Virus record (IMG/VR): IMGVR_UViG_2645727680_000003
DNA: 11,059 nucleotides
From: a virus
Lineage: Duplodnaviria; Heunggongvirae; Uroviricota; Caudoviricetes
Direction: 5' to 3' (one strand)
Position 1 is the stretch's first letter, and each line of letters starts with the position of its first letter. The translations under genes were made by a program, and so were the position numbers. Below the pieces are notes generated by a model, which did not search any database, was not told where the DNA came from, and saw only the letters and a list, made by a program, of their open reading frames with translations. Positions 2 through 4,932 of the stretch are shown here, piece by piece.

Positions 2-1495
2 GCTCATCCGGAAGAAATCGACAGCATCGTGGCCATCACCCGCGATATTGCCATTCAGGAAGACCGCCACGAGCTGGGCAATGATATTACTCCGCGCTTT
101 AAGGCGGAGTATGTCGACGGCTCAAAAGGCACACCAACCAGCTATATCGCGACCTACATCGGAAAGAACCTGGACAGCCGCGCCGTGGATGGCATCGACC
201 CGAAAACGGGCAAGCCACGCGTTGACCACGAAACCGGAAAATCAATGGTCGAGAGTGTGGAGCGCGCCATCGGCTGGGCGCGCCTTCATCGGGTCCGCCA
301 GTTCCAGTTCTTTGGCATCCCCTCCCGTCAGGTGTGGCGTGAACTGCGCCGCCTTGCCAGCCAGATGGCACGCAACCCGGAAGGCCCGCAACGACTGAAA
401 GATGACGCAATGGATGCGGTACTCGCTGCCGCCGATGCCGGGTGTTTTGCCACCTACATTGAAAAACAGGGCGGCGTACTTGTTCCACGCAAAGACTACC
501 TGATTCGCACCGCCTACGACCTCGCAGATGAGCTGAATGATTACGGCGAACAGAGCGTACAGATTTACGGGATCTGGTCACCACTCATCGGGGAATCCTC
601 CCGTGTGTGCACGCATCCGGATAACTGGAAACTGGTAAGACGTAAACCGGAAACGGAAGACAGCGCCCGCGAAAATGGTTTTGACCTTCAGGGCGGCCCT
701 GCCGCCCCTTGGACTCGTGGCAATAACTGTCCCCGTGTACAGGAAACGGACAACAACGGGACAGAACAGCCGGAAGAACGGCCAGCACCGTGGCCGCAGC
801 TCCCTGACGGCGTTGAAGTGAACGAATGGATGCGCTCACTGAAACGGCACGAACGCCGGGCGCTGATGCGTTCGCTTCGTGACAAACAGGCAAAAAACAG
901 CAGTGATGAAATGCAGAGCTGGACACAGAGCCGCAAACAGCAGCGGCCTTTGCCTGATAACCACGAATTACTCGCTAAAGAATGGCGGGAATCTGCCGAA
1001 TCTCTCGGCCTGCATATCGGTGAACAGCAGATGCAGCACCTGTTACGGGGCGGCAGCCTGTACGTTGACGGCAGCATCATTGCACCGCAGGGATTTGAAA
1101 TTGTACGCAAACCGGATACCCGCCCGGACAGCCGAATCACGCAGCTCTGGCAGCGCCTGAGCCGTAACCACGGCGTAAGCAGCACGGAGATCCGCCATAA
1201 CCCGGTCGCCAGCTATCTGGAACAGCTGGGGGCATCAGACCCCGAAGCCGCCGCACGCCTGGCATCCACACTTCAGCAAGACCAGAACACCATGAAAACA
1301 CCCGTTACCGTGCTTTCTGACATGCTGCGCGCCATCCGCGACGCAGAGCACGCACAGAGAATCAGTGAAACCACTGAACGCGCCCGCCGCAAAGCAGACC
1401 TGCTGCGGGGTGGCCTGACCAGTGGAAACAAAAAACAGACAGAAACGGGATTCACAAATCCCGTAAATGAGCAAAAAACGCGCCGCGATATATGA
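2..1495 (+). CDS. Replication initiation protein, rolling-circle endonuclease (P2 gpA-like), 5'-partial; C-terminal ~250 aa is a Q/R-rich extension
   Basis: Reading frame is open from base 2 to the TGA at 1493-1495, so the gene starts upstream of the window. Contains SYIATYIGKNLD, a Y-x-x-x-Y-x-x-K motif like the paired catalytic tyrosines of P2 gpA-type initiators. Position directly upstream of the cargo/cos region matches P2 synteny. Family assignment is from recollection, not a search. Confidence 0.6.
   Translation, partial: AHPEEIDSIVAITRDIAIQEDRHELGNDITPRFKAEYVDGSKGTPTSYIATYIGKNLDSRAVDGIDPKTGKPRVDHETGKSMVESVERAIGWARLHRVRQFQFFGIPSRQVWRELRRLASQMARNPEGPQRLKDDAMDAVLAAADAGCFATYIEKQGGVLVPRKDYLIRTAYDLADELNDYGEQSVQIYGIWSPLIGESSRVCTHPDNWKLVRRKPETEDSARENGFDLQGGPAAPWTRGNNCPRVQETDNNGTEQPEERPAPWPQLPDGVEVNEWMRSLKRHERRALMRSLRDKQAKNSSDEMQSWTQSRKQQRPLPDNHELLAKEWRESAESLGLHIGEQQMQHLLRGGSLYVDGSIIAPQGFEIVRKPDTRPDSRITQLWQRLSRNHGVSSTEIRHNPVASYLEQLGASDPEAAARLASTLQQDQNTMKTPVTVLSDMLRAIRDAEHAQRISETTERARRKADLLRGGLTSGNKKQTETGFTNPVNEQKTRRDI
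1445..1464. promoter_or_regulatory. Perfect 8-bp inverted repeat ACGGGATT-N4-AATCCCGT (copy 1), inside the 3' end of the replication gene; candidate ParR operator/centromere half
   Basis: Read directly: ACGGGATT 1445-1452, spacer CACA, AATCCCGT 1457-1464. A second near-identical copy lies 73 bp downstream. Confidence 0.4.
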
Positions 1496-1517
1496 AGCGC
1501 GCATAAAACAGGCAAAA

Positions 1518-1537
1518 ACGGGATTTCAGAATCCCGT
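1518..1537. promoter_or_regulatory. Perfect 8-bp inverted repeat ACGGGATT-N4-AATCCCGT (copy 2), 35 bp upstream of the parM-like start; candidate operator/parC-like site
   Basis: Read directly: ACGGGATT 1518-1525, spacer TCAG, AATCCCGT 1530-1537. Flanks AAACGGGATT / AATCCCGTAAA are shared with copy 1. AT-rich TTAATTAAT follows at 1544-1552, a possible -10 region. Confidence 0.4.
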
Positions 1538-1571
1538 AAACGATTAATTAATCAACATAAGGAAAAGCGAC

Positions 1572-2490
1572 ATGAAAATTTGTATCGATGACGGCTCCAC
1601 CAACATCAAGCTGGCATGGACTGAGAACGGCGAACGCCGCAACGCCATCAGCCCGAACAGCTTCAAGTCGGAATGGTCTGCGCCGTTCGGTGGCACGCAG
1701 CCCGCGAACTACATGCTTGATGGCGTGCGCTATGGTTTTGATCCGGTCAGCGATCGCTTTGTCCAGACGACCGACACGCAATACCAGTACAGCGATGTGA
1801 ATGTCATTGCCATTCATCACGCGCTGGTCAAATCAGGCATCACACCACAGGAAGTGGATGTGGTTGTCACCCTGCCACTGAGCGAATATTTCGACACAAA
1901 CGCACAGCCGGACATGGCCAACATCAACCGCAAAAAAGCAAACGTCATGCGCCCGGTGGCGTACCAGAACGGAAAAGCATTCACTATCCGTAACGTACGG
2001 GTTATGCCTGAATCCATTCCGGCTGGTTTTAAAGCACTGGCTGACATGAGTCCGTTTGAATCCCTGCTGATTGTGGATTTAGGCGGAACCACGCTGGATG
2101 TGGCAAAGGTTCAGGGACAACTGGCAGGTATCAGCCAGGTGTTTTGCGATCCACACGTAGGCGTTTCCCTGATGGCCGATGCCGTACTGTCGGTGATGGC
2201 CACTAACGGTATGCGTACCAGTCACCACATCGCCAATACCATTATCGAACATCGCCATAATGAAGCCTGGCTGCGCCAGCACATCCACAATGACGCGCAT
2301 TACGACAGCCTGATGGCGGTTATTCGTGAAAAGGAAGAAACACTGAAACAACGCGTGATCCGCGCGCTGGCGGGNNNNNNNNNNNNNNNNNNNNNNNNNN
2401 GAAGCCTGCGGAGTTAATGCGACTTTCATCGCGGACGGGGTGCCACAGTTTGCTCTGGTTAATGGGCTGTACGCAATGGACAAGGAGTAA
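1572..2490 (+). CDS. parM: ParM/StbA-like actin-family plasmid segregation ATPase; interrupted by an N-run at 2375-2400
   Basis: N-terminus MKICIDDGSTNIKLAW..ISPNSFK..QYSDVNVIAIHHAL..VMPESIPAG..LLIVDLGGTTLD matches plasmid R1 ParM (MLVFIDDGSTNIKLQW..ISPNSFK..QYSDVNVVAVHHAL..VMPESIPAG..LLIIDLGGTTLD) as I remember it. RBS AAGGA 1559-1563, ATG 1572. After the gap the frame starting at 2401 reads EACGVNATFIADGVPQFALVNGLYAMDKE and stops at TAA 2488-2490, resembling the ParM C-terminus DLVNGMYLIGN. The ORF track's stop at 2417 is an artefact of reading through the Ns. Confidence 0.85.
2375..2400. other. Run of 26 N (assembly gap or masked bases) inside the parM-like gene
   Basis: Read directly from the sequence. 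Confidence 0.97.
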
Positions 2491-2494
2491 ACCA

Positions 2495-2806
2495 ATGACG
2501 ACACCAACCAGACGGATAAGTTTCTATCTGAAGCCCGCCGCCGTCAAGAACGAAGGCGAAGCATGCGCCTGGCTGGACAGCCTTACACCAGAAGCCCGCA
2601 AAAGTGGTCAACGTGTGGCTTTTCTGGCCGGACTGGCACTTATGAAAATTAATCCGGCAGAGGCTTACCGACTGGCTGCATGGGCTGACGATGAAGCGTT
2701 ATCCCTGACACAAACCAGGACAGAACGCCCCGTGTCACAGCCAGCACCAACCGCACAGATAACCAGTCAGATGGCCGGAAATATCCGGGCGTTATTTCCT
2801 GAATAA
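2495..2806 (+). CDS. parR: ParR/StbB-like DNA-binding adaptor (small ribbon-helix-helix-type partition protein)
   Basis: MTTPTRRISFYLKP...LDSLTPEARKSGQRVAFLAGLAL...NIRALFPE parallels R1 ParR (..RRTIAFKLNP...LDSIPQGERSRLNRAALTAGLAL...ILRSLFP) as I remember it. RBS AAGGAG 2482-2487, ATG 2495, overlapping the parM stop, which implies translational coupling. The upstream extension to 2417 in the ORF track has no RBS and overlaps the parM 3' end. Confidence 0.75.
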   Translation: MTTPTRRISFYLKPAAVKNEGEACAWLDSLTPEARKSGQRVAFLAGLALMKINPAEAYRLAAWADDEALSLTQTRTERPVSQPAPTAQITSQMAGNIRALFPE

Positions 2807-2869: not shown

Positions 2870-3394
2870 ATGAGCGAAATCAACTATCAGGCATTACGTG
2901 AGGCGGCACAAAACTATCAATCGACGCTGGCGTGGTATGAGGCCACCACGGATAACCCAAATGCTGAGCAGGATTGTAGCGAAGCAGTGGCGGCGTTTAA
3001 GCGTCAAATCCGTCATCAGGAAATGGACATTATCGCCGAGCTGCTGGAAGAGCTGGAAACCAAAGACAACAGGATCGCTGAACTGGAAAAAATCGCCACT
3101 GAGCATGCACTGAAATTCCAGAAAGCACAGGACGCATTAAAGTATGCCGCTTTGCTGCATAGCCGAACGGCGCAACAAACCAATAATTTTGCAGTATTGC
3201 TTCCGGACATAAGCGAATATTTCATTAATAACGTATTTCAGCCCTTGCGATACGAGCGGGATGTTGAAAGAGCCATCATAAAGGCTGGCGGAAAAGCATT
3301 GTGGCAGGAGAAGCACGAGGAAAGAACGCATCAGCTAAGTGATGTAAATAGTGGATGGTTATGCCCACTGACAGAAGGTAAAAAGAACACCTGA
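2870..3394 (+). CDS. Hypothetical 174-aa protein with a central coiled-coil (EELETKDNRIAELEKIATEHALKFQKAQDALKY); N-terminus YQALREAA loosely recalls ead/Ea22-like prophage proteins (tentative)
   Basis: Clean ORF with RBS AAGGAG 2855-2860 and ATG 2870. Heptad-like charged/hydrophobic pattern in the middle. The 3' half is visibly AT-richer than neighbouring genes. No confident family assignment. Confidence 0.6.
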   Translation: MSEINYQALREAAQNYQSTLAWYEATTDNPNAEQDCSEAVAAFKRQIRHQEMDIIAELLEELETKDNRIAELEKIATEHALKFQKAQDALKYAALLHSRTAQQTNNFAVLLPDISEYFINNVFQPLRYERDVERAIIKAGGKALWQEKHEERTHQLSDVNSGWLCPLTEGKKNT

Positions 3395-3407
3395 TTTCCT
3401 CTCAAAC

Positions 3408-3433
3408 CAGGGCGATAATCGCGCATCGCCCTG
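3408..3433. other. Hairpin CAGGGCGAT-N8-ATCGCCCTG, 14 bp downstream of the orf174 stop
   Basis: Read directly: 9-bp perfect stem, 8-nt loop. Same arm motif as the hairpin at 2815-2832. Not followed directly by a T-run. Confidence 0.5.
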
Positions 3434-3434
3434 C

Positions 3435-3461
3435 TGCACAATAGTGCACAAATTTGCACAA
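3435..3461. repeat. Three direct TGCACAA repeats phased at exactly 10 bp, followed by T7 (3462-3468); a fourth TGCACAA at 3527-3533
   Basis: Read directly: TGCACAA at 3435-3441, 3445-3451 and 3455-3461. Helical-turn phasing suggests a protein-binding array. Confidence 0.6.
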
Positions 3462-3504
3462 TTTTTTTGAACGACTTTTTGCCCTTCCGGCCCCCGTGGC
3501 GGCT

Positions 3505-3523
3505 GGATCCGTCAAGGATCCGT
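3505..3523. repeat. Tandem GGATCCGT repeats 11 bp apart, adjacent to the TGCATGCA palindrome
   Basis: Read directly: GGATCCGT at 3505-3512 and 3516-3523. Confidence 0.5.
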
Positions 3524-3834
3524 GCATGCACAAAAAAACGCGCTTTTTCTGCGCGCAGGTGACGGGGGAACAGCCCGCGTTTCAGGGGGTAAATAGCGTT
3601 CCCTTAACAATGTCGCAGCGACACGACAGAATGGCCGTATTTCTCACGCTGAGCGTGAAAAATACGTGAGGGATTCTGATTTGATGGGGTGAAAGGTAAG
3701 GCCGTCAAAATCGCACTGAGGCGGCGAGAACATGCAGTCAACGCGGTGGGATTGCGTAAGAGTCTGACCGTCGATGGTGGCGATAAATTGGAAGGCGTCG
3801 TGAAATTATCTGACTGATACAGGAGCTGGAGAGT

Positions 3835-3859
3835 CGGGGCATAAATTTTTTATGCCCCG
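3835..3859. other. Palindromic hairpin CGGGGCATA-AATTTTT-TATGCCCCG, 27 bp beyond the 3' end of portal gene Q; possible terminator or structural element at the end of the leftward P-Q operon
   Basis: Read directly: 9-bp stem, 7-nt loop. No U-run follows on either strand, so it is not a canonical intrinsic terminator. Confidence 0.3.
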
Positions 3860-3885
3860 GCGAAGCAGCAGACAAGCGAAGCGCG

Positions 3886-4932
3886 TCAGGATGTGGGCTG
3901 GGTGTCTAACAGTGCGTAAGGGTTAAAACGGATAACCTCTTCGCCAAGCCAGTCATTGATGTGCTTCATGGCCTCCATGACTGGCATCAGCTCGTTAATT
4001 GCGTAAACCCGCGCGGCCTTCTCCACATCACCAAACGCACTTTTTTCACCCGGCATCGCCCCCATCAGTTGCGGCGGAACGCGGTGCGCAGCCAGCACAT
4101 CATCACGGGATGCCGCCTTAACATTCATGAATTCATCCTTTGCGGTGATCTGCTGGAACGGCAAAATTTGCACCCCCTCTTTGCCCCCGTTGGGCGCATG
4201 AATGAGCACGTTTTTAAACGCACCACCACCACGTGCCCCCTGTAACGTTTCTTTCAGGGAGTCCATGCTTTCGCGGTTTACCTGCGCTGCACCGATGTAG
4301 ATGATGCACCCGGCGTGGGATCCGTTGTCGTAATACAGTTTTCTGAACATGTCCGCCGAATGAGACAGGCTGGCCGAGAGTAATGCGCCGAGATATTCCG
4401 GCATGCCGTAGATTTCCTGGTTAATATCTGGATTCATCAGGTGGCACACTTTGCCAGGGCGAAACTGAAACGCGTCCTTACCATCCTGCACATACCACCA
4501 TGATTCAAGATCGCTTCCGCGTCGCATGTATTTCGCCAGGGCGTGCCGTAATTTAAGCGGTTCGCCGAGCATATTGCTTCGAAGCTCAAGGAATGCGTTA
4601 CCGAACACAAACCAGTCCAGCGCCAGCGCCGAGAAATCCTGCCGGGAAAGCAGCGGGTGTGGAATATAGCAACCGAGCAATACATTGCGCTTAAAGTAAA
4701 GCGCAGACTGATGCCAGGACGTTTGCCGGGCAGCTCTTGCCAGACCGTACCAGTCCACCGGGGTTTCATACCACCGCCCGTTATCAGCACAGTACATATT
4801 GTCCAGCAGGTCATGCCCGGTCAGGCGATAAGGACCATCAAATGTGAATGCACTGAGCGATGATTCTTTCCTGAGCGCATCAGCGAGATCAATGCGTGAA
4901 CTCATGCGCACTTTTTTATTTTTTCTGCTCAT
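3886..4932 (-). CDS. Q: Portal protein (P2 gpQ-like)
   Basis: 348-aa ORF, similar in size to P2 gpQ and in the expected place: downstream of and coupled to the large terminase gene (ATGA overlap at 4930-4934), adjacent to the predicted cos region. Family assignment by synteny and recollection. Confidence 0.8.
   Translation of the reverse strand: MSRKNKKVRMSSRIDLADALRKESSLSAFTFDGPYRLTGHDLLDNMYCADNGRWYETPVDWYGLARAARQTSWHQSALYFKRNVLLGCYIPHPLLSRQDFSALALDWFVFGNAFLELRSNMLGEPLKLRHALAKYMRRGSDLESWWYVQDGKDAFQFRPGKVCHLMNPDINQEIYGMPEYLGALLSASLSHSADMFRKLYYDNGSHAGCIIYIGAAQVNRESMDSLKETLQGARGGGAFKNVLIHAPNGGKEGVQILPFQQITAKDEFMNVKAASRDDVLAAHRVPPQLMGAMPGEKSAFGDVEKAARVYAINELMPVMEAMKHINDWLGEEVIRFNPYALLDTQPTS

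Follow-up and report, generated by a model that had tools for sequence, protein, structure and literature searches.

The DNA analyzed here, referred to as the window, is an 11,059-nucleotide stretch of a Caudoviricetes virus (IMG/VR record IMGVR_UViG_2645727680_000003) that is ~96-97% identical to Escherichia phage P88 and its relatives (Xuanwuvirus, Peduoviridae, P2-like). It contains the 3′ end of the replication gene gpA (gene A), followed by parM, parR, an Ead/Ea22-like gene, and the P2 head genes, of which Q and P are encoded on the minus strand and O, N, M, and L on the plus strand. Two copies of a short palindrome lie immediately upstream of parM. We examine these palindromes as candidate binding sites for ParR and hence as the putative centromere (parC) of the partition cassette.

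The window contains exactly two matches to ACGGGATTNNNNAATCCCGT, at 1445-1464 (loop CACA) and 1518-1537 (loop TCAG), whose starts are 73 bp apart, in agreement with the perfect, twofold palindrome described in the original prediction. Copy 1, ACGGGATT-CACA-AATCCCGT, occupies codons −16 to −10 of gene A and would provide ParR with two inverted half-sites; copy 2, ACGGGATT-TCAG-AATCCCGT, is intergenic and is likewise a proposed ParR site. Neither has a strand. The parM ATG (1572) is 107 nt from the end of copy 1 and 34 nt from that of copy 2. The chance expectation for ACGGGATTNNNNAATCCCGT is 0.03 matches, and two matches were reached in 1 of 200 shuffles. As had been claimed, a third ACGGGATT-N4-AATCCCGT copy is absent from the window, and this holds even when up to three mismatches are tolerated. 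In P88 (35.8 kb), too, the motif occurs nowhere else, neither in the C/Cox control region nor at the late promoters. A lone 8 + 8 palindrome whose arms are 4 nt apart would not be unusual (~0.17 expected in 11 kb); the improbable feature is the recurrence of the same arms, rather than a single palindrome.

The palindromes are enclosed within a 42-nt direct repeat (1429-1470 and 1502-1543, plus strand, 81% identical), and the two copies are therefore not independent events. Unit 1 consists of an A-rich leader, CAAAAAACAGACAGAA, the palindrome, and TAAATGA, and its left end coincides with the left edge of the parMR cassette; unit 2 consists of CATAAAACAGGCAAAA, the palindrome, and TAAACGA. The eight differences between the units affect all four loop positions and 4 of the 22 flanking positions, but none of the 16 arm positions (P = 0.013 for the spared arms). 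The 53-bp spacer between the palindromes (1465-1517, plus strand) is rich in A-tracts, includes the stop codon of gene A (1493-1495), and lacks a recognizable sigma-70 promoter. The palindrome pair is the sole repeated motif within 150 nt upstream of parM. Across 1400-1575, there are no extra half-sites (AATCCCGT with up to two mismatches) and no 10-11-bp periodicity or iteron register, the 73-bp shift being the only significant one by autocorrelation. The term "repeat array" therefore does not apply, because the site comprises two palindromes, or four half-sites, and no iteron array.

The parM gene (1572-2490, plus strand) encodes an actin-like segregation ATPase and is preceded by the Shine-Dalgarno sequence AAGGAA (1559-1564). 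Its product matches the StbA_N (5e-82) and ParM_N (2.9e-45) families over its full length, and the DNA of this region is 96.8% identical to P88. The gene is interrupted by 26 N at 2375-2400, where P88 has ~67 nt, which points to an assembly gap or mask of undefined size. Because of this run, the list of open reading frames (ORFs) splits parM, and ORF callers give a 281-residue "ParM" and a 129-residue "ParR" that starts 26 codons too early. The true ParR (2495-2806, plus strand) is a 103-residue protein that begins MTTPTRRISFYLKP, with its start 5 nt past the parM stop. It carries the ribbon-helix-helix (RHH) strand RRISFYLKP near the N-terminus and a C-terminal tail, NIRALFPE, predicted by homology to bind ParM.

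ParR matches PF10784 (3.5e-25). A search of the PDB with the single ParR sequence returned no match and a profile was needed; that built from 10 ParR proteins, including the one in the window, matches the pB171 ParR structure 2JD3 (E = 1.7e-11). Judged by these matches, the window encodes a bona fide R1/pB171-type ribbon-helix-helix ParR. The AlphaFold2 monomer has a predicted local distance difference test (pLDDT) score of 57.8, contains only helices, and is disordered at the N-terminus. A poor monomer model is expected because ParR is an obligate dimer, and the model, unsuited to a fold search, was not used. A PADLOC scan of ParM and ParR gave no match to defense systems. The β-strand MTTPTRRISFYLKP and the C-terminal tail N-I-x-x-L-F-P are invariant across ParR alleles that are only ~50% identical, in step with the unchanged palindromes. 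The protein (2495-2806) is a mosaic among loci L002-L120, with moderately different helices and a linker (approximately residues 65-95) that brings the overall identity to ~50%. There are at least three to four allele classes, while the neighboring ParM stays 97-100% identical. This pattern suggests recombination or diversifying selection acting on the middle region of ParR.

The palindromes remain with parMR when the surrounding genes change. An exact motif match was found in 119 viral contigs, and in all but five it lies beside parM, or beside gpA at the end of the contig. The five exceptional matches occur in unrelated contexts without ParM or ParR, correspond to the number expected by chance, and are the only palindromes found without the cassette. 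A search of other genomes carrying this parMR had been proposed as a check, and the palindrome is present beside parMR in every genomic context examined. In L045, a replication gene with only 32% identity precedes a 159-residue ORF; copy 1 is intergenic there, and window homology sets in at ~1430. In L065, an unrelated 145-residue ORF ends at a TAA just past copy 1, and both palindromes are present. The Hafnia relative L124 has a different gpA tail with its stop codon in the copy 1 loop, and retains both GGGATT-N4-AATCCC cores together with the 73-bp spacing. The cores are also retained in Salmonella and E. albertii relatives, the copy 2 core of Hafnia and Salmonella being GGGATT-N4-AATCC. The 73-bp spacing is found in 64 of 68 unique P88-like sequences. 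Because the gpA tail varies while the cores and their spacing persist, it is the DNA, rather than the gpA protein, that is retained. On this comparative evidence, the palindromes are inherited with the parMR cassette and not with gene A. In Klebsiella P2-like phages, whose similarity to the window is confined to positions 411-738, the palindromes do not occur.

Two loci depart from the usual arrangement. In L113 (3990-4150, minus strand), a natural in-frame deletion fuses parM, at approximately codon 20, with the 3′ portion of parR, and both palindromes remain upstream. In L020 (~14150, minus strand), foreign DNA lies between copy 1 and copy 2, leaving only copy 2 beside parM. This locus was considered as a natural one-site cassette and rejected, as it looks like a mobile-element insertion between the copies, with a minus-strand coding region and a displaced gpA.

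The same comparisons delimit the cassette and account for its overlap with gene A. The 3′ part of this P2-type replication gene (29-1495, plus strand) is open from the window start, and its last ~22 codons are cassette DNA. The frame runs through copy 1, where the codons ACG GGA TTC ACA AAT CCC GTA start 16 codons before the TGA at 1493-1495, and the P88 gene annotated as "replication endonuclease" stops at the homologous position. Copy 1 thus lies inside the 3′ end of the replication gene, as originally stated. The further claim that the centromere overlaps replication-gene coding sequence is correct as to position, but the overlap is incidental, since copy 1 is cut by the stop codon in Hafnia, precedes the ORF end in L065, and is intergenic in L045. 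The overlap is a by-product of where the parMR cassette is joined. On the right, a GC-rich hairpin, CAGGGCGGGTTCGCCCTG (2815-2832, no strand), directly follows parR and marks the point at which close P88 homology stops. As L045 homology starts at ~1430 and P88 homology stops at this hairpin, the cassette spans approximately 1430-2835 and includes the two palindromes, parM, parR, and the hairpin. The P88 hairpin has the same stem with a different loop (GGGCGCATCCGCCC). Beyond it, similarity to P88 breaks down, with the Ead/Ea22-like gene of the window (2870-3394) replacing a ClpX-zinc-finger-like gene in P88.

The cassette is widespread. Of 5426 complete E. coli genomes, 1304 contain region 1400-1640, with 1441 of its occurrences in chromosomes and 2 in plasmids (more than 99% chromosomal). 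Rousset et al. (2022) devote a single sentence to the cassette, reporting a "putative plasmid partitioning system" at the gpA-gpQ hotspot of about a quarter of P2-like phages, and describe neither a cis-acting site nor a function for it (PMC9122126). We found no description of the cis site of P2-like parMR in the literature. One complete P88-like genome of 34,461 bp (NZ_CP148288.1; L338) has been entered as a circular "plasmid" from an E. coli isolate and contains integrase, C, Cox, gpA, parMR, and all structural genes. It could represent either a phage copy present as an episome or induced phage DNA that was assembled.

The locus was compared with 55 loci from one-genome-per-species contigs together with plasmid examples. 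In each of the ParR clades examined, parM is directly preceded by a repeat peculiar to that clade. A Serratia-type clade in P2-like prophages forms the nearest outgroup, with ParM proteins that are 54-58% identical to that of the window and the ParR strand NRKISFYLKP. Its half-site, CAAAAACGGGAAC, is conserved among four loci with diverged flanks; the clade retains CAAAAACGGGAACGAnATAGAAAAA, and the inverted partner extends to GTTCCC in L269. The window and this clade have the half-site AAAAACGGGA in common, and their ParR strands are near-identical. This sharing is the closest approach to covariation evidence that the sequences offer. The MAFFT alignment of P88-type and Serratia-type upstream DNA is untrustworthy, and motif inspection was used instead. 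The Serratia-type regions (L134 2355-2480; L267-L269 ~1355-1480) contain the long inverted repeat GGGAACGAnAnAGAAAAAT ... ATTTTTCTnTTTC(G/A)T(T/G)(C/A)CC with ~50 bp between its parts, as well as a TTTAAACGGC element between TTTCATGACC direct repeats. In L134, a DNA methylase gene lies between gpA and parM.

From these observations, we consider it likely that the two palindromes are the ParR-binding centromere of a type II ParMRC cassette in the gpA-gpQ hotspot of P88-like phages. Candidate parC is the best reading because parM and ParR are real, the palindromes are the only upstream repeat and stay with parMR, and other clades have analogous repeats at the same place; in this respect the original prediction stands. 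The site is most likely a minimal, palindromic, two-block parC with four half-sites. We infer from sequence the binding of ParR to the palindromes, as well as the stoichiometry and shape of the complex, its regulation, and its biological role in a mostly integrated prophage.

Several observations weigh against this assignment. The site has four half-sites compared with 10 iterons in R1, and a pSK41-type ParR ring has ~12 dimers per turn (PMC5016525). The identity of the two copies may stem partly from a recent 42-nt duplication. Both palindromes are perfect in only 19 of the 68 unique P88-like sequences. Arm changes are one-sided (T1451C in ~20 and C1535T in ~13 of the 68, with A1518G also common), and a test for purifying selection on this set found the arms to be about as polymorphic as the neighboring intergenic DNA. 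No compensatory arm changes occur among the 68 sequences. Thus, the perfection of the palindromes holds for the window, but not for many natural variants; P88 itself has an imperfect copy 1 (ACGGGACTCACGAATCCCGC) and a perfect copy 2. The stable core among the variants is (C)GGGAT...ATCC. In addition, the P88-type clade is shallow, with ParM proteins at least 95% identical, and 55 genome loci, three viral-contig scans, and 80 metagenome loci yielded only relatives at ≥95% or ≤62% identity. With so shallow a clade and no intermediates to the Serratia clade, covariation of ParR and its DNA is not demonstrable.

The lack of a recognizable sigma-70 promoter also speaks against a canonical parC. 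The best sigma-70 score in 1380-1575, obtained with a position weight matrix, is 5.98 compared with a random-window median of 5.4; the same matrix recovered an R1-type promoter (9.07, TTGATT-16-TAAACT) and the L140 parC promoter (14.0) as positive controls. A consensus scan of 1300-2900 identified no promoter-like site, and a canonical parC has one. The proposal that the palindromes form an operator overlapping their own promoter was therefore dropped, along with the idea of an antisense RNA, because promoter searches on both strands gave nothing above background. There may be an unusual or activator-dependent promoter upstream of parM. No plus-strand terminator was found after gene A. Read-through from the early/replication operon is the probable, and simplest, source of parMR mRNA given that neither a promoter nor an intervening terminator is seen.

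Three other explanations were weighed against the parC assignment. The palindromes could act as RNA, either as minus-strand intrinsic terminators that halt leftward antisense transcription before gene A, or as plus-strand hairpins that stabilize or process the gpA-parM transcript. A terminator scan does list both sites on the minus strand, each with an 8-bp stem and a U-tract (tails TTTTTGCCTGT and TTCTGTCTGT), the hairpin free energies are −10 to −11 kcal/mol, and the plus-strand z-scores are −4.4 and −3.5. Conserved stems with freely varying loops fit such a role, and common variants still permit a shortened or wobble-paired stem. However, no minus-strand gene needs terminating, the nearest leftward genes (Q and P) ending 2.3 kb away at 3886, and there is no minus-strand promoter in 1538-1800. 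The U-tracts on the minus strand are no more than the complement of the A-rich leader, which is conserved and also precedes the Serratia-clade half-site; the plus strand lacks a U-tract. Independent terminators have no reason to share identical arms. Wobble compatibility falls on opposite strands for the one-sided variants (1451 T>C on the minus strand only, 1535 C>T on the plus strand only), no compensatory change is seen, and there is no Rfam match. We regard an RNA function as improbable.

It is quite improbable, in our estimate, that the pair is a mostly neutral by-product, in which a chance palindrome without present function was copied by the 42-nt duplication and the real ParR site, if any, lies elsewhere or has been lost from a prophage that has ceased to require partition. 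A single palindrome of this kind is not rare for any given loop length, and the copies do lie within a longer direct repeat. The arms are about as polymorphic as their surroundings, 11 of the 68 unique relatives have no intact 6-bp core palindrome, and the need for a centromere is not obvious in a chromosome, where nearly all E. coli occurrences reside. Nevertheless, neutrality does not account for repeat units whose arms are identical at 16 of 16 positions and whose loops agree at 0 of 4, nor for the core and 73-bp spacing retained in Hafnia, Salmonella, and E. albertii, nor for a half-site common to the Serratia clade at 54-58% ParM identity. Moreover, the intactness and strong conservation of parM and parR across hundreds of loci favor a functional system, for which a cis site is required, and no other upstream repeat is available. 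Least probable of all is that a different protein (C, Cox, Ogr, gpA, or a host factor) occupies the palindromes in place of ParR, or that they are recombination or junction sequences at the cassette edge. As no promoter was found, a pure ParR-operator role is not evident, and the left cassette edge falls at repeat unit 1 in L045 and at copy 1 in L065, within a region that is a known hotspot of cassette exchange (gpA-gpQ; PMC9122126). Against this, the right edge is a different hairpin (2815-2832) with no motif copy, and P2-like phages with other hotspot cassettes did not turn up in the motif scan. The motif occurs nowhere else in P88, including the C/Cox region and late promoters, and does not resemble the Ogr dyad, which is TGT-N12-ACA. 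Direct reading of the sequence revealed no good match to the integration host factor consensus. Finally, the palindromes persist with a 32%-identical gpA (L045) and beside an ORF that is not gpA (L065), and are therefore not a gpA or replication-origin site.

Returning to the palindromes as parC, the following mechanism can be envisaged. ParR dimers would insert their N-terminal β-ribbon (RRISFYLKP) into the major groove at each half-site (WWWACGGGATT), so that two dimers would sit on each 20-bp palindrome, as they do on the 20-bp unit in pSK41 parC. Separated by 73 bp, or ~7 helical turns, the loaded palindromes would lie on the same face of A-tract-rich DNA and could form one compact complex. 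The 53-bp spacer has room for ~5 further ParR dimers and might be filled cooperatively. The clustered ParR tails (NIRALFPE) would then catch the ends of growing ParM filaments, which would push sister DNA copies apart. Palindrome-bound ParR could also act as a roadblock-type autoregulator of read-through transcription.

Two features of the phage genome lie apart from the cassette. By P2 gene order, the cos site should be located at approximately 3400-3886, in the interval that separates the accessory genes from the portal gene Q, which ends at 3886. The P88 genome (L266) encodes a hok/gef-type (MokW-like) toxin at 34928-35068, outside the window; such genes are a classic plasmid-maintenance module.

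ParMRC is a textbook plasmid-segregation machine. The version in P2-like prophages is uncharacterized despite its presence in 1304 of 5426 complete E. coli genomes, and the candidate parC would be an expected, so far undescribed component of a known kind of system. With a 93-bp candidate centromere (1445-1537) and defined half-sites, the prophage ParMRC becomes directly testable, including for persistence of the phage as a plasmid. Should ParR not bind the palindromes, no recognizable cis site would be left in the cassette, which would be informative in itself. We also entertain, as a rather unlikely scenario, a promoter-less ParMRC with a minimal centromere that is switched on only by read-through from the early/replication operon and acts on the excised or newly injected circular phage genome. 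Such a system would allow P2-like phages to exist facultatively as plasmids (in a carrier or pseudolysogenic state) or would position replicating phage DNA, unlike a conventional plasmid stability locus that is always on. Since about a quarter of E. coli strains carry the cassette in their chromosome, ParMR, whenever expressed, might also act on the host chromosome in cis through this two-palindrome centromere.

The closest parallels to the proposed site are found in plasmid ParMR loci. The iterons of R1 are established ParR sites (Dam & Gerdes 1994; PMC2241845). As in R1 parC, the palindromes lie directly upstream of parM-parR in A-rich DNA and form two blocks, with a spacer of 53 bp compared with 39 bp in R1. 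The R1 and window ParR proteins are 27% identical, both belong to PF10784, and share a C-terminal N-x-x-x-L-F tail, the respective strands being RRTIAFKLNP and RRISFYLKP. The R1 iteron core AAACCCA resembles the arm AATCCCG of the window, and, compared by eye, arm AAATCCCGTAA agrees with the R1 iteron AAAACCCAAAA at 8 of 11 positions. The two sites differ in that R1 has 5 + 5 direct 11-bp iterons, whereas the window has 2 + 2 inverted half-sites without a periodic array. More generally, tandem direct iterons of the 10-11-bp kind (10 in R1; 4 × 20 bp in pSK41) are not matched by the window site. The R1 spacer holds the par promoter and none is detectable here; R1 parC is plasmid-borne, whereas the window site belongs to a P2-like phage and is chromosomal in nearly all of its E. 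coli occurrences. A large clade with the ParR strand RRKITFYLNP has TTCTC iterons in two blocks around a TTGACA/TATAAT promoter.

Few palindromic units are also seen in the pB171- and IncI-type loci. In the pB171 type, two to three ACTCA-N3-TGAG palindromes, which from their sequence pattern we take to be ParR sites, lie at about −29, −65, and −101 and are conserved in E. coli, Morganella, and Yersinia at 69-75% ParM identity. In pB171-type plasmids, whose ParR is that of structure 2JD3, the par1 (parMR) upstream region has two short palindromes adjoining parM (ACTCAAATTGAG at −70, ACTCAGATTGAG at −29), and like the window has few units and no long array; it differs in sequence (ACTCA/TGAG), in gap (3 vs 4 bp), in spacing (41 vs 73 bp), and in its ParM, which is 39% identical. 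IncI-type loci (IncI-gamma/K) have palindromic TACATTGCATGTA units ~72 bp apart around a TATAAT (L129 861-951), with 53-58 nt between the inverted arms, and IncL/M has 10-bp TTTTTCTATA repeats in blocks 73 bp apart (L128 876-978). Both groups share with the window two blocks ~72-73 bp apart upstream of parM and have ParM proteins 51-52% identical to that of the window, but they carry a strong TATAAT promoter between the blocks, more repeat units, and other motifs, and their ParR strands (RRCSFELFP and RKCSFYIYP) differ. The common 72-73-bp spacing may reflect a shared geometric constraint of ParR-parC complexes. Since pB171-type and IncI-type loci show it, the arrangement of few palindromic units in two blocks is an existing layout in the ParMR family, and the window would be a further example of an R1-family ParR able to use few palindromic sites instead of long iteron arrays. 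Beyond this family, the site recalls RHH operators and type Ib centromeres (Arc/Mnt, the omega heptads, and ParG parH), which have short inverted or direct half-sites that each receive one RHH dimer, with cooperative dimer-of-dimers binding (PMC5016525). The partners in those systems are ParA-type ATPases, or the sites serve repression only, whereas in the window the partner is the actin-like ParM.

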